DNA of 63,898 bases, filler included, from Reclinomonas americana ATCC 50394 (GCA_048213135.1; 24 parts of 24 records of this genome joined end to end with filler, not necessarily neighbours in it); one strand, 5' to 3'. Shown: positions 29,968 to 36,062, numbered from the whole stretch's first letter. The notes: generated by a model not told the origin, from the sequence alone. Numbers and translations are program-made.

Positions 29968-32900
29968 TTACCTCCACGCAGTACCGTCCTCGTCCTCGTC
30001 CTCCTCCTCATCGTCTTCCTCCCCCTCGTCCTCCTCCTCCTCCTCTTTCTTCATCACCTCCATCTTCACTGGTTTCTCGTCATCCAGCACTGCATCATAC
30101 TCGTCAGAGTTGATGCTGGCACGACATGCAACAACATCCAGGTGCTTCCAGATCTTTCCATTTGGAGCACTCACCAACACGCTCAATCTCCGTCTTTGAC
30201 AGACTTCCATCTCGAAGCAGCGTTGTCAGCAAACCAGGGCTGTTGTGGAGCAGATGCATGGCCTGCGTGACGAATGGCAGAAGAGAACTTGGAGGACCTC
30301 GCCTCGGCAACTTTGCCGATTCCTGTCACCCGAGAGTACTAATAGTGAGCAAACTAACATCGATTCACAGAACCACACATCCAAGAGACATGCCTCCGAG
30401 TGGCCACGTTCGTCAATCACAATCAATGGTCTTTCGACAGCATCCAGCAGCTCAGCTCCTCGAAGTCTGCTTTTCTGATGATCCCGCATATATTGAACTC
30501 AAGTCAGTCACCGGCAAGTCGCGTTCGGAGGCGACACAGAACAACACACTGGTATACTCACGTCGATGAAGTTGGACACGCTCGCCAGCACACCCTCAAC
30601 TGACTTGGGCGCCTTGTTGCGCGCATCCTTGGCACTTCTGACAAGACTCTTGCCGAATGATGACATGACTGCGAATGATGGGCAGCCTGGTCCCTCTGAT
30701 GGCATCCCGCAGTCGTCACAGGCAAGTTGGAAGAGAAGGCGCTGATGATGGTGGACAGTGGATGGTATCACCACGGGTGCCATGAGGCCGAACGCCTCCA
30801 CAAGTATCCTCTTCTTGTTGCATCCCTATTCGCATGTGCGGTGGGTGAGTGGGAGTGAGGAGCCGAGCAGAGAGGTAACAACAACACGCAACATGTAGCC
30901 TCGTTAGCATTAACTGCTCGCTGATGCTCAACTTCGCAGGGCCACTCTTCCGGCGCTGCGATTGAGAACCATGCTGTTTGAAATGCACACATCATACACG
31001 TCTCACACATAGCAGTGACGGGCGTACCTTGTGTCTCTTTTTCCCCTCCCCGTCATCGTCCTCATTCTCGCTGTCGTCATCATCATCCGCCTGTTCGTCG
31101 TCCTTTCCCTTCTTCTCTTTCTTCGCCATCTCCATCTCTCTCAGGGCTGGGCCAGATTGTCAGCACCTGCTCACACTGTACAGCAAAGAATGTCACGCAG
31201 CCAAACCTCGTTCACTGCACCACTCGACGGCACGCTTAATCTCCGCCTCAGACAGGCAACCGTCTCGAAGCAGAGTGGCCAGCAGGCCAGGGCAGGTGTG
31301 GAGAGCCTGCATGGCCAGTGTGATGAACGGCAGAAGAACGTTTTGCTTGCCGTTTATCTGCGTCAGCTTGGCTGATTCCTGTCACCCAAGGATTGAAAAC
31401 GTGAGACAACATCATTGATGCACATCAGCGCACACAATCACAGTCCCCATGCCTCTGAGAAGCCGCGGTCGTCAATGACAATCAGTGGTCTCTGGACAGT
31501 AGCCACCAGCTCGGCTCCTCGAAGACTGCTTTTCTGATGATCGCATACACATTCATGTCGAGTCGGTCAGCAGGCAAAGCCATCAAATGTGAAACAGGAA
31601 CAACACAGAGACACTCACTTCGATGAAGTTCCTCACTGTCTCAAGCACGCCCTCCACTGATTTGGGCGTCCGGCTGCGTGCCGTGCGGGCACTATCGGCA
31701 AGACTCTTGCCAAATGCAGACATGACAGCGGAAGATGGGCTGCCCGGTCCCTCCGACGGCATACCGCATTCATCACAGGCAAGTTGGAGGAGAGTGTGCT
31801 GGTGGTGGAGGACTGTGGATCCGATCACCAAGGGTGCCATGAGGCCGAATGCCTTCACCAGTATCCTCTTCCTGTTGCATCCCTGTTCGTACGTGTAATG
31901 AGCAGAAGCAAGTGAGGAGTTCATGACAGCACTGTCGGTGACATGCAGAGAGCACGCAACAAGCAGTCTCGCCAGCATCAGTTGTTCGTTGATGCTCGGC
32001 TTCGCAGGACCACTGTTGTGGCTCTGTGACATGCACACCATGAGTTGTTAAGATACACACCTATTGAATAATTCAATAGAAGTGGTGGGCGTACCTCGTT
32101 CCTGCCATTCCCTCTCGCATGGACATCCTCATTCTCGCTATCGTTTGCATCCTCCTGCTCTTTTACCATCTTCATCTCTCTCAGAGCTGTGCCAGATTGT
32201 CAGTACGTGTACACCCTATGCAGCAACTAAGATTGTCAGGCAGCCAAACCTCGTTCACTGCACCACGAGGAAGCACGAGCAATCTCAGCCTCGGAGAGAC
32301 AGCCATCTCGAAGCAGAGTGGCCAGCAGGCCGGGGCAGTTGTGGAAAGCCTCCACAGCCTGTGTGATGAATGGCAAAAGAGGGATCTGCCTGTTGTGCTG
32401 CATCCCTGGCAAGCATGACGACTCCTGACATCCGATTTTCGGAGCACAGAACGTGAGAAACAACGGGTGCGCTGAGCACACTGAGCGCGGGGAAGCCACA
32501 CACCTCCGAATGACCACGTTCATCCACCACAAACAGCGGCCTCTCAATGACATCCGCCAGAGCCGCATCGCACAGTTCACTCTTCTGCATAATGGCACAT
32601 ATGTTAGCGCTCATCATTGATAAACTTGCGCAAGAAGATGATCGCTGCTCACCTCGACAAAGTCGCTCATTATCTGTAGCACTCCTTCAACAGACTTGGG
32701 CGTCCTGACGCGTGCTGCCCTGACGAATTCGCCAAGACTCTTGCCAAATGTGCTCACAACTGCCGATGAAAGGCAGCCTGCTTTCGATGAAGCGATGCCA
32801 CATTCCTTGAACGCAAGTTCAACAAGAACACGCTGATAGTGGCGGACTGTAGGTCCCCCCACGACCGGTGCCTTGATGCCAAATGCCATCACGAGTATCT

Positions 32901-35900
32901 TCTTTTTGTTGCAGCACTGCCCTCACATGAATCACTCGATCAGACGGACGACTACCGAAGAAGGACACATGACTGCAAACACACGCAACGAGCAGCCTGG
33001 CCAGCAGCAGTTGTTCGTCCTTGCTCATTGTCACAGAACCACTCCCTCGTCGCTGTGAATGCGCACCATGAAAACTTGCGACAGAATGCACCTGACCAAC
33101 CATCTAAGTCATACCTTGCTCCGGTCACCATCGCCCATGTCGTCGTCTTCATCGTCTTCCCCGTCGACACTCGAATCATCCTCCTCTTCCTCCTCCTTCA
33201 TCTCTTCTTTCTTCAGCACCTTCGCCTCCACCAGAGCTGCATCTCCCTTGTCAGCCCAGACACCATGCACACAGTAGAACGCACCAGATGCCATCAAACC
33301 TCTTTCACTGCACCACTCGACGGCGCGTTCGATTTCCGCCTCGGAGACACAGCCGTCTCGAATCAATGACGCGTGCAAGCCAGGACACTCACGTAGGGCC
33401 TGCGCGGCTCGGGCGACGAACGGCAGGAGACCGTCGTTGTTCCGTTTATACTCCATCATCTTCCATGATTCCTGCCCCACAATAGACATAAGAAGTAAGT
33501 GAGTCGACATAAATCGAGAAATGCAAATAGCGCACAACAAAAAGTTGGCTCACCTCCGAATGGCCACGTTCATCCACCACAATCAGTGTTGTCTCAATGG
33601 CATCCGCCAGAGCAGCACCGCAAAGTTCACTCTTCTGCAGGGTTGTACACGCAGTGATGTTGGCTCACTTTCCAGTCGCGCGGGATGGACAGAGAAGATA
33701 AATACTCACCTCGACGAACTTGCTCATGCTCTGGAGCACTCCTTCAACTGACTTGGGCGTCTTGGCGCGTGCACGTTGGACGACACTACCAAGAGTCTTG
33801 CCGAATGAGTCAACAACTGCAGGTGACGGGCTACGAGCTCCTGACGAAGGAATGCCACATTCCTTGCATGCGAGTTCAGACAGAACGCGCTGATGATGCA
33901 AGACTGCGTTTCGTTTCACAATAGGTGCCATGATGCCGAACGCCGTCACCAGTATCTTCTTCTTGTTGCACCGCTGTTCGCACAGACACGAGCACGAATC
34001 AGATGTAATGATAGGCAGGTACAAGGCAGACTCAATCAATCTGCCTTGCTGAGGTGTTGTGGACATGCACACGCAACAAGCAGTCTGTCCAGCAGTATTC
34101 GCTCGTCCTTGCTTAAATCCGCNNNNNNNNNNNNNNNNNNNNNNNNNNNNNNNNNNNNNNNNNNNNTTAATTAATTAANNNNNNNNNNNNNNNNNNNNNN
34201 NNNNNNNNNNNNNNNNNNNNNNATGCAGAGAAGCCATGAGACCATTGCACTTGCGCAACGCATCCGTGGCCTGCTTGACAAACGGCTGAAGAAGATCCTT
34301 CTGAATCTTGTGATGAAGAGGCAATTTGTTCCACGATTCCTGTCACACGAGGTCGAGGGTGAAGATCAATGGACACGATAGTAACAGCCACTGAAGATCA
34401 TGCAAAACAATGCACCTCCGAATATCCGCGCTCATCCACGACAATGAGTGGTCTCTCAACTGCATCCACCAGAGCCCCGCCACTGAGCTGGCTCATCTGC
34501 AGATTGCAATCATCTGCGTGTTGGTTCACATGTCATGGTCGTCACCACGTATGTTCGCTCACCTCGATGAAAATGCTCACACGATGTAGCACACCTTCTA
34601 CAGATTTGGGCGTTGAATGGCGTGAACAGCTGGCAGTCGCGCCAAGCTTCTTGCCAAATGCACACTTGACTGCAGACGACGTGCGACCCGGCTCCGACGA
34701 TGGAAGCCCGCAGTCGTCGCACGCAAGTTGAATTAGAACACTCTGATGGTGCATTACTGTGGATGGTCGGACAATAGGTGCCATCAACCCGAATGCCTTC
34801 ACAAAAATCCTCGTCCGATTGCAGCGCTGCGAGTGACACATGAAGAATGGTGAGTGCAACGAGGAGATGGAATAGCGCTGAGCTGCAATGATGAAAGAGA
34901 GCATGCGCACGCAACAAGCAGCTTGTTCAGCAGCAGCTTATCGTCTATGCTCAACTCCTCTGGCTTTTTTGCAGCCCGAGTCTTGCCACTCTGCGAATGC
35001 ACAACATGCAGCATTGACACATGGAACCCAAATGCAGATCGATGAACGAACACAACAATGTCAGTAGCAGAGAATCCAAACCTTCTTTTTCTTTGGCGGT
35101 GCAAGCTCTTCGTCGCTGTATGCATCCGCCTGTAGAGAATGAAGATAGAACAGCAGGTGTCAACTGCGATGCACAAGTGTGACGAATGCCGCATCAGAGC
35201 TCACCTCCAGAGAACGCTTGCGGACCGATGTCTCATCTGAGCCACGTGCAAGCAAGTCCTCGCTGTGATCCACCTGAGACGAGTCGACTCGCTGCCTCCT
35301 CGCACATTGCTGTGCAATCATCACAAGAGAGACAGAGAATTCAGTGAGAGACATGCTCATCTTGGGTCGACACACAATTACTGTACCTCGACGATGCCTT
35401 CCATCGCTGTGTGTTCCATGTGCTCCTGGTGAGCGGCTGTGTACATGCACGGCCCAGCTGAGACATCACGTGACGCGAGAACACCAAAGACAGCAAGAGA
35501 GAGGGAGAGGGAGAGAGAGAGAGAGAGACGCACCCTGCTCAGCGTCACTTCGCGCAGCTGCAATGGCGGCCGTGCTCTCGTCGGCATGCTTCTTCTCCTT
35601 CTTGTCTTTCACGAGGCCAGCTGGTTCTGCAACAGGGAATGAAACAACGACAATTCATGATGAACAAGAAGAAGAAGAAGATGAAGAAGAACAAGCAGAA
35701 GAGGAAGAAGAAGAACAAGAAGANNNNNNNNNNNNNNNNNNNNNNNNNNNNNNNNNNNNNNNNNNNNTTAATTAATTAANNNNNNNNNNNNNNNNNNNNN
35801 NNNNNNNNNNNNNNNNNNNNNNNCAGATGACCCCGATGCGCTCTTCTTCTTCTTCTCATCATCATCATCGTTGTTGCTGTTGATGGAGGAAGAGGAGGAA

Positions 35901-36062
35901 TGCATCATCATCATCGGTGTCACATGCTGCTTGCTGTCGACGAGCATCATGTCTGCTTTCTCGTCGTCGCACGGAGAAGAGGCAGACATTGGCAGTGAAG
36001 GAGTTGTTGTTTTTGTTGTTGAGTGAGGGCGTGGAGGAGGAGGAGGACGGCGAGAGGCCATT
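29968..36062 (-). CDS. Tandem-domain protein, paralog A (N-terminal low-complexity region + NLS-like motif + 5 copies of an unknown ~185-aa domain)
   Basis: Start MASRRPPPP (~36062); PPKKKK ~35082-35099; units at ~34223-35000, 33115-34122, 32095-33070, 31028-32000 and 29968-30973. The exons checked stay in frame across conserved intron positions. Confidence 0.85.

Follow-up and report, generated by a model that had tools for sequence, protein, structure and literature searches.

Genes that have grown by tandem duplication of multi-exon cassettes are known from the nebulin and titin super-repeats and from the HMG-box arrays of UBF, and alternating acidic and basic linkers are known from nucleolar and nuclear proteins of the nucleolin and Nopp140/NOLC1 type. 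Dinoflagellates and euglenids, furthermore, have nuclear-encoded polyproteins, in which tandem mature units follow each other in one open reading frame (ORF). Here, we consider a locus of Reclinomonas americana ATCC 50394 (GCA_048213135.1) that bears a likeness to all three: a family of four genes, called A, B, C and D in what follows, in which one domain of about 185–197 residues is repeated in tandem. It lies in a window of 63,898 bases, by which is meant the whole stretch of DNA that was analysed. That these genes form a real, selected family with new sequence is very probable.

With nebulin, titin and UBF the family shares a fixed exon set of conserved lengths and phases, as well as a history of internal duplication, divergence by position and subsequent whole-gene duplication, but its domain belongs to none of those families, and its five-exon units of about 1 kb are separated by charged disordered linkers. 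As in proteins of the nucleolin and Nopp140 type, folded modules are placed between runs of Asp/Glu and Ser followed by runs of Lys/Arg, a signal peptide is lacking and the N-terminus is of low complexity; the module here, however, is not an RRM or any other domain recognised by Pfam, and there is no sequence relationship. The polyproteins of dinoflagellates and euglenids are similar in that several copies of a unit stand head to tail in a single reading frame. The units considered here, in contrast, are not near-identical but share 50–81% identity, with conservation by position between paralogues; their linkers are long and charged rather than short cleavage peptides, and a targeting peptide is absent.

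A five-exon cassette repeated in four genes

At least 12 copies of the domain are present, five in gene A, four in B, two in C and one in D, and this split, which had been proposed in an earlier note on the same DNA, is obtained alike from motif scans, from three-frame reading and from profile hidden Markov models (HMMs). HMMs of exons b, c and d were applied to all ORFs of the window in six frames. The exon-b model gave 12 matches, ten of them whole with expectation values (E) from 2e-44 to 3e-49 and two cut by assembly gaps at 2e-33 and 8e-10; the exon-c model gave 11 (E 2e-21 to 5e-18) and the exon-d model ten, while the best ORF outside the family reached only E 0.55, 1.8 and 0.17, respectively. 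The 12 units, ten whole and two gap-cut, are all on the minus strand, and the four paralogues lie within 34 kb. Since all four genes run into assembly gaps, the unit counts are lower bounds. The same N-terminal exons are carried by genes A to D, which are thus four separate genes; for exons 1 and 2 the matches are those of conservation at the DNA level only.

Each unit is a cassette of five exons, a to e, of about 1.03–1.07 kb, and in the contig 29852-34122 the distances from start to start are 1057, 1034 and 1057 nt. Exon a has 21–27 codons and ends in an LxxLL-like helix motif, exon b has 88 codons (264 nt in 10 of 10 whole copies), exon c has 27 codons (81 nt in all 11 copies), exon d has 57–59 codons and ends in phase 1, and exon e, of 31–41 codons, is the charged linker; the domain proper is encoded by exons a to d, and its consensus as first read agrees with the present unit alignments. 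Positions and phases of the introns, earlier compared in some units, are alike in all units modelled here, with the a/b, b/c, c/d and e/a boundaries in phase 0 and the d/e boundary in phase 1. When the 19 exons of the contig 29852-34122, which holds nearly four units, were spliced in a script, a single ORF of 900 codons was obtained. All 18 introns of this contig are 54–104 nt long, 16 being of the GT-AG and two of the GC-AG type. Because intron lengths are mostly not multiples of three and most introns contain stops, the frame is kept only by splicing, and there is no stop in any of the 33 copies of exons b, c and d that were found. A GC donor (GCATG) follows exon c in units A4, A5, B3 and B4, i.e., in four of the 11 exon-c donors, the other seven being GT, with the first intron base at 31452, 30393, 39940 and 38877 (minus strand), respectively. 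The GC donor is conserved between the paralogous genes A and B, and that four related units have retained it in both genes speaks for its use.

The predicted features of gene A, all on the minus strand, are the following.

29968..36061: gene A, a spliced model from three-frame reading, crossing the gaps 35724-35823 and 34123-34222
35626-35534, 35457-35387, 35309-35205, 35129-35082: N-terminal exons after the ATG
34223..34990: unit A1 (position 1); a 34990-34916, b 34826-34563, c 34496-34416, d 34339-34223 (gap-cut)
33115..34122: unit A2 (position 2); a 34122-34078 (gap-cut), b 33973-33710, c 33634-33554, d 33471-33300, linker e 33236-33115
32095..33052: unit A3; a 33052-32990, b 32916-32653, c 32584-32504, d 32424-32250, e 32186-32095
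31028..32023: unit A4 (penultimate); a 32023-31961, b 31882-31619, c 31533-31453 (GC donor), d 31378-31207, e 31146-31028
30104..30973: unit A5 (last); a 30973-30893, b 30825-30562, c 30474-30394 (GC donor), d from 30322 into the C-terminal tail

The ATG of gene A is at 36061-36059, and not at 36062 where the gene had been taken to begin. Its end was put at 29968, and a TAA is indeed found at 29970-29968, but it is reached only if a frame difference of 1 nt is ignored; the stop of the assembled sequence is at 30106-30104. The difference is one extra base in the last exon of gene A, compared with gene B, near 30135: GGATGTTGTTGC vs GGTATTGTTGC (30104-30175 vs 38600-38661). The extra base reflects a real, recent truncation or else a sequencing error, and the latter may be the case in an assembly as fragmented as this one.

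The corresponding features of genes B, C and D, likewise on the minus strand, are listed below.

38419..43510: gene B, a paralogue of gene A with its ATG at 43510 and its stop at 38421-38419, interrupted by the gaps 43174-43273 and 41244-41343
Unit B1: b 41868-41605, c 41533-41453
Unit B2: b 41243-41157 (gap-cut), c 41081-41001, d 40913-40739
Unit B3: b 40371-40108, c 40021-39941 (GC donor), d 39866-39695
Unit B4: b 39308-39045, c 38958-38878 (GC donor), d from 38811
59554..61735: gene C, both ends gap-cut, with N-terminal exons of its own (matches 61735-61240)
Unit C1: a 61148-61074, b 60980-60717, c 60646-60566, d 60488-60311
Unit C2: exon b 59761-59555 (gap-cut)
60056-60012: mini-exon of 45 nt after the position-1 linker of gene C
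61931..63784: gene D, 3' end gap-cut, with N-terminal exons of its own (matches 63784-63380)
Unit D1: b 62989-62726, c 62654-62574, d 62493-62316
62076-62032: mini-exon of 45 nt after the position-1 linker of gene D

Exon d of B4 is uninterrupted by introns and passes directly into a poly-Glu tail. A possible GTGAGT donor in the last units, within exon d, was considered and rejected, as its use would give genes A and B non-homologous ends while gene B reads through to the acidic tail. At 39442-39470, the exon-a acceptor of the last unit is AAACAG in gene A and AAACGG in gene B, and an in-frame AG further downstream in gene B would make exon a six codons shorter. The mini-exon of genes C and D, which reads VVADGDG[D/G]KESKTRK and is flanked by AG and GT, lies within the linker that joins the unit at position 1 to that at position 2, and the part of gene A that would match it is covered by a gap. 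In gene D, the linker and mini-exon are followed by a (GT)n stretch that reaches the end of the contig.

The window is made up of 24 contigs of 1.2–9.2 kb (1,243–9,225 nt), with gaps represented by 100-base linkers, N44-TTAATTAATTAA-N44, between them (for example at 29752-29851, 34123-34222, 35724-35823 and 61831-61930), and microsatellites, (GA)n, (GT)n or (GAA/GAG)n, stand at many contig ends. Adjacency across the gaps holds at scaffold level only. The order of the contigs appears to be real, since a UTP15 gene is split over neighbouring contigs and the repeat units are in register across gaps.

Divergence by position preceded gene duplication

Selection on the units was estimated by the Nei-Gojobori method from the nine units with complete exons b, c and d, which form 36 pairs that are not independent of each other. 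The ratio of non-synonymous to synonymous divergence (dN/dS) is 0.23–0.45, with a median of 0.30, so that all 36 pairs are below 0.5 and none is near 1. Third codon positions vary most, with differences per codon position of 0.26/0.20/0.40 in exon b and 0.18/0.17/0.45 in exon c. The purifying selection that had been suspected from the sequence is thereby borne out. It had been suspected because introns seemed to diverge much faster than exons, and this is correct for old duplicates but not for units at the same position in different genes. For units at different positions, intron identity is 0.57, compared with a shuffle baseline of 0.50 +/- 0.04, while the nucleotide identity of exons is 0.62–0.71 in most pairs and 0.77–0.80 for the related penultimate and last units. 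When the same position is compared across genes, mean intron identity is 0.77 and exon identity 0.79–0.87.

How the arrays arose can be read from a maximum-likelihood tree of the 12 units, in which they group by position and not by gene. A clade of the position-1 units A1, B1, C1 and D1 has support 100/99, a clade of the position-2 units A2, B2 and C2 has 91/91, and the last units A5 and B4 form a pair with 100/99, beside which A4 and B3 are placed inside a clade with support 99/97. A3, which has no counterpart in gene B and no partner in the tree, is the most diverged unit, with HYQ in place of HHQ and LAF in place of LAC. Since units cluster by position across genes, the array was formed before gene duplication: the cassette multiplied inside an ancestral gene, the copies diverged by position, and then the whole gene was duplicated. 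Before that last step the copies had diverged to 50–65% identity. Synonymous divergence (dS) is 0.28–0.39 between the partners of genes A and B, and 0.44–0.52 among A1, C1 and D1.

Conserved residues, relatives and partial models

The residues C2, N3, H26 and Q28 of exon b are invariant in 10 of 10 aligned copies, as are F57-G58-K59 and K74-S75-V76. The Cys, His-His and CxxC that the earlier note had called conserved are so in most copies, since C2 and H26 are kept in all ten copies, but H27, C36 and C39 are each lost in one copy (9/10 each). The Cys of a terminal WC is kept in nine of nine copies, and a D[DE][RH]G motif of exon c in 10 of 11, C1 having NERG. With C2, H26, H27, C36, C39 and the WC Cys there are enough candidate ligands for a four-ligand site, and a structural metal site formed by C2, H26, C36/C39 and the terminal WC is possible on this pattern of conservation.

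The linkers are D/E-rich and then K/R-rich, as first described: an acidic exon e, giving net linker charges of -14, -4 and -7, is followed each time by a basic exon-a start of the RRGSG or RRKSGPAK type. They are about 40–60 residues long and disordered, and they look phosphorylatable by motif, as they have RRxS-like sites, Lys runs and Ser beside acidic stretches. Unit 1 is preceded by SDEE and PPKKKK, and the N-terminal region of the proteins is of low complexity. The folded part (exons b to d) has a net charge of +1 to +8 in 11 of the 12 units.

Two hydrophobic segments occur in each domain, ILVxAFGxMAP in exon b and PLIVVDERG in exon c. The exon-b segment has a hydropathy of 1.3–1.96, exceeding 1.6 in six of 11 copies. 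It was considered as a membrane span and rejected, because, if each unit crossed the membrane once, homologous domains would end up on both sides of it; in the position-1 and position-2 units, moreover, the segment is interrupted by Lys, Arg or Glu. By a simple hydropathy calculation (Kyte-Doolittle, 19-residue window) exon 1 shows no signal peptide or membrane anchor, its maximum being 0.08 in gene A and 0.49 in gene B. An internal duplication within the unit was likewise discarded (exon-b vs exon-d profile, hhalign probability 0.7%). The FGK of exon b was also tried as a Walker A motif of P-loop nucleoside triphosphatases, of which LIVVDE taken alone would resemble the Walker B motif. The residue after G58-K59 is Ser or Thr in only six of ten copies and Lys or Arg in four, and five residues before G58 there is an invariant Val where Walker A needs Gly or Ala.

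All searches for relatives were made with single exons (27–88 residues of a unit of about 190) or intron read-throughs as queries, and in that scope none reached significance; the domain, which the earlier note did not recognise, stands as unrecognised at the level of sequence, a claim that does not extend to its fold. In Pfam, 11 exon-containing ORFs had no match better than E 0.035, all matches being far below cut-off and mutually unrelated, and at E <= 10 no family was common to the ten exon-b copies or to the nine exon-d copies. Sequence profiles of the Protein Data Bank (PDB) gave at best E 0.22 for exon b (sarcospan) and 0.14 for exon d. In the ESM Atlas, exons b and d had no usable match (best score 0.78), and a full-text literature search with four motif strings of the domain had none. 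A word-indexed search with exon b, restricted to longer proteins, found no relative.

Among nucleotide collections, 41 pattern matches in JGI metagenome contigs and seven in IMG/VR viral contigs were followed by no confirmation, and 30 in GTDB genomes by one, in an Aldersonia genome (L001, 2001-2042). This match, 14 residues (93%) to LVxAFGLMAPLVIG, was selected by pattern and lies inside a hydrophobic, membrane-helix-like stretch of a 612-residue ORF, an acyltransferase by eye only; it is read as chance. Six pieces had no match in PADLOC, a prokaryote library, and in PHROGs they had only matches at E 0.034 and 0.46, both to families of unassigned function. No Pfam family of transposases, integrases, reverse transcriptases or capsids was seen in the 11 ORFs.

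Partial structures were modelled with AlphaFold. The exon-b alignment gave five helices at a predicted local distance difference test (pLDDT) of 69.9 and a predicted template modelling score (pTM) of 0.60, and for B4 exon c, intron and exon d, with the other units as partial rows, pLDDT was 61.5 and pTM 0.34, with helices in exon d and a pLDDT below 50 in exon c. In these partial models, and with middling confidence, the domain thus looks mostly helical. The lowest values belong to the two hydrophobic segments, 55–60 for residues 1–20 of exon b and 42–44 in exon c, which may be strands whose pairing needs the whole domain. The exon-b model had no Foldseek match in the PDB at E <= 0.001. For a predicted complex between exon b and exons c–d the score was 0.01, compared with a mark of 0.34 and without controls, and this is evidence neither way.

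A possible nuclear scaffold and its alternatives

The best explanation overall, to which we assign a probability of roughly 0.4, is that four tandemly arranged, intact and intron-rich nuclear genes encode non-secreted beads-on-a-string proteins that serve as a multivalent nuclear binding scaffold. In each protein, the low-complexity N-terminal region would be followed by one to at least five copies of the domain, with the charged disordered linkers between them. The protein would be intracellular, a multivalent and probably nuclear or nucleolar scaffold for chromatin, histones or RNA, in which mildly basic, folded and position-specialised modules would each contact a ligand, while the acidic and basic linkers would tune or space the binding under regulation by phosphorylation. 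A role in chromatin or nucleic-acid binding is suggested by linker composition together with the lack of a hydrophobic N-terminal signal, and the functional part taken by itself, a multivalent and probably nuclear or nucleolar binder, is put forward tentatively. More doubtful is the further proposal that the family founds a domain class of its own, without relatives in the protein, structure and metagenome collections that were searched. This would be a Cys/His module of about 190 residues, with a metal site closed by the invariant Cys at its beginning (CN) and the one at its end (WC) along with H26 and C36/C39, and its arrays would be lineage-specific scaffolds of chromatin or ribonucleoprotein, with phospho-regulated linkers, in a little-sampled branch of eukaryotes.

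Several points weigh against the scaffold explanation or its parts. Nuclear location and binding are both read from composition, and acidic and basic linkers occur in cytoplasmic proteins too. The gene models are predictions from sequence, and in assembled gene A the acidic tail homologous to that of gene B sits one frame off, down to 29968. Remote homologues could be missed with exon-sized queries. An exhaustive hmmsearch of the ten-copy exon-b profile against 1.84 billion protein representatives, which found nothing at E <= 0.001, had no positive control. The word-indexed search also misses the UTP15 ORF of the window, whole or as residues 100–240, which Pfam and PDB recognise, so this search is blind for the lineage and its blanks are uninformative. 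The models cover exon b and exon c-intron-d, half-domains and not the whole domain, and the hydrophobic segments, expected in the core, are their least confident parts. The invariant C2, N3, H26 and Q28, finally, could equally mark an active site.

It is conceivable, though we doubt it, that the domain, rather than having a new fold, belongs to a known alpha/beta superfamily from which it has diverged very far, in arrays that bind RNA or nucleotides. Exon b has some likeness to the core of L7Ae/L30e/Gadd45 (PF01248), by its ILVxAFGxMAP, HHQxxLxxLACxECGxPS and FGKxL, that is, by a hydrophobic strand-like segment, an 'A..P', a helix ending in 'C.E....P' and a '.GK.L', but no search bore the likeness out and the spacing from AP to C is about eight residues longer here. 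Buried parallel strands typically look like the all-hydrophobic ILVxAFG and PLIVV, the latter with DE behind it, and PLIVVDERG resembles a central beta strand with acidic residues at its end; both segments are low-confidence parts of the models, as expected if each half lacks its partner strand. Both partial models, however, are all-helical. PF01248 is absent at E <= 10 for all ten exon-b copies as exon-sized queries, and the PDB profile search at the same limit gave only sarcospan and no chain of the L7Ae family. No three-layer alpha-beta-alpha chain of the L7Ae type is in the Foldseek and VIA-align lists, which cannot exclude the fold.

Each unit could also be an enzyme or a separately acting protein, with the gene encoding catalytic Cys/His modules in an array, or else a polyprotein that is cut in its linkers to give monomers, as in dinoflagellates and euglenids. 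The invariant residues of exon b and the exon-c motif agree with this, as do the units standing head to tail in one ORF, but the units of one gene are only 50–70% identical and each has its own same-position orthologue in the paralogous genes, as is more to be expected of specialised domains in one protein than of monomers that could replace each other. With H27, C36 and C39 each lost in one copy, the Walker A pattern absent and no enzyme family matched in Pfam, we regard this alternative as unlikely.

A fast-expanding recognition or immune-type family, which the earlier note had also suggested, is less likely still and finds no support here. Expansion there is, in that four paralogues are packed into 34 kb and unit number varies from five in A to four in B, A3 being the one left over. 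The dN/dS values, on the other hand, are uniformly below 0.5, with none near or above 1, the exon-1 hydropathy of genes A and B shows neither signal peptide nor membrane anchor, and the prokaryote-only PADLOC library matched none of the six pieces.

The setting of the scaffold candidate is that of ordinary genes. The DNA of the window is eukaryotic nuclear, as marked by a G+C content of about 52%, short spliceosomal introns and abundant microsatellites, and the neighbours of genes A to D are ordinary or housekeeping genes.

36531-37346, minus strand: ORF between genes A and B, on their strand, in which Pfam recognises a ferric-reductase NAD-binding domain (PF08030, E 1.7e-07)
46661-46733, plus strand: tRNA-Glu with a CTC anticodon (45.6 bits in Rfam), on the strand opposite to the UTP15 ORF and some 220 nt past its stop
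46957-48204 and 50507-51139, minus strand: gene for UTP15 of the small-subunit (SSU) processome, on two contigs

The UTP15_C domain ORF has a Pfam E of 4.5e-36, and its best solved relative is human UTP15 (E 2.9e-11); a WD-repeat-looking ORF on the next contig upstream, on the same strand and without a Pfam match, is our reading of the N-terminal part. A 396-residue open frame at 4604-5791 (minus strand), also without a Pfam match, may be another lineage-specific gene.

That the array is dead or selfish DNA, i.e., a pseudogene array, a multicopy element derived from a transposon or virus, or an assembly artefact, is very improbable, for although assembly gaps fall exactly where the units recur and the last exon of gene A has its frame difference, the exon copies are free of stops, 18 of 18 introns keep the frame, dN/dS is about 0.3, the copies differ by 13–38% at the nucleotide level and are therefore not collapsed duplicates, no transposase, reverse-transcriptase or integrase domain and no PHROGs or IMG/VR match beyond those given above was obtained, and the neighbours are housekeeping genes.

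Divergent eukaryotes commonly have orphan families, and cassette duplication is a textbook mechanism; the novelty so far is at the level of sequence, and the family is not so much a surprise as a tidy lead. Should the whole unit prove to lack a known fold, it would be a new protein domain with an unusually clean natural history, leading from a five-exon cassette over position-specific divergence to gene duplication, and its twelve diverged copies are useful both for structure prediction and for the design of experiments. It would then also point to a function, in the nucleus or elsewhere in the cell, that is specific to the lineage of this poorly sampled eukaryote.

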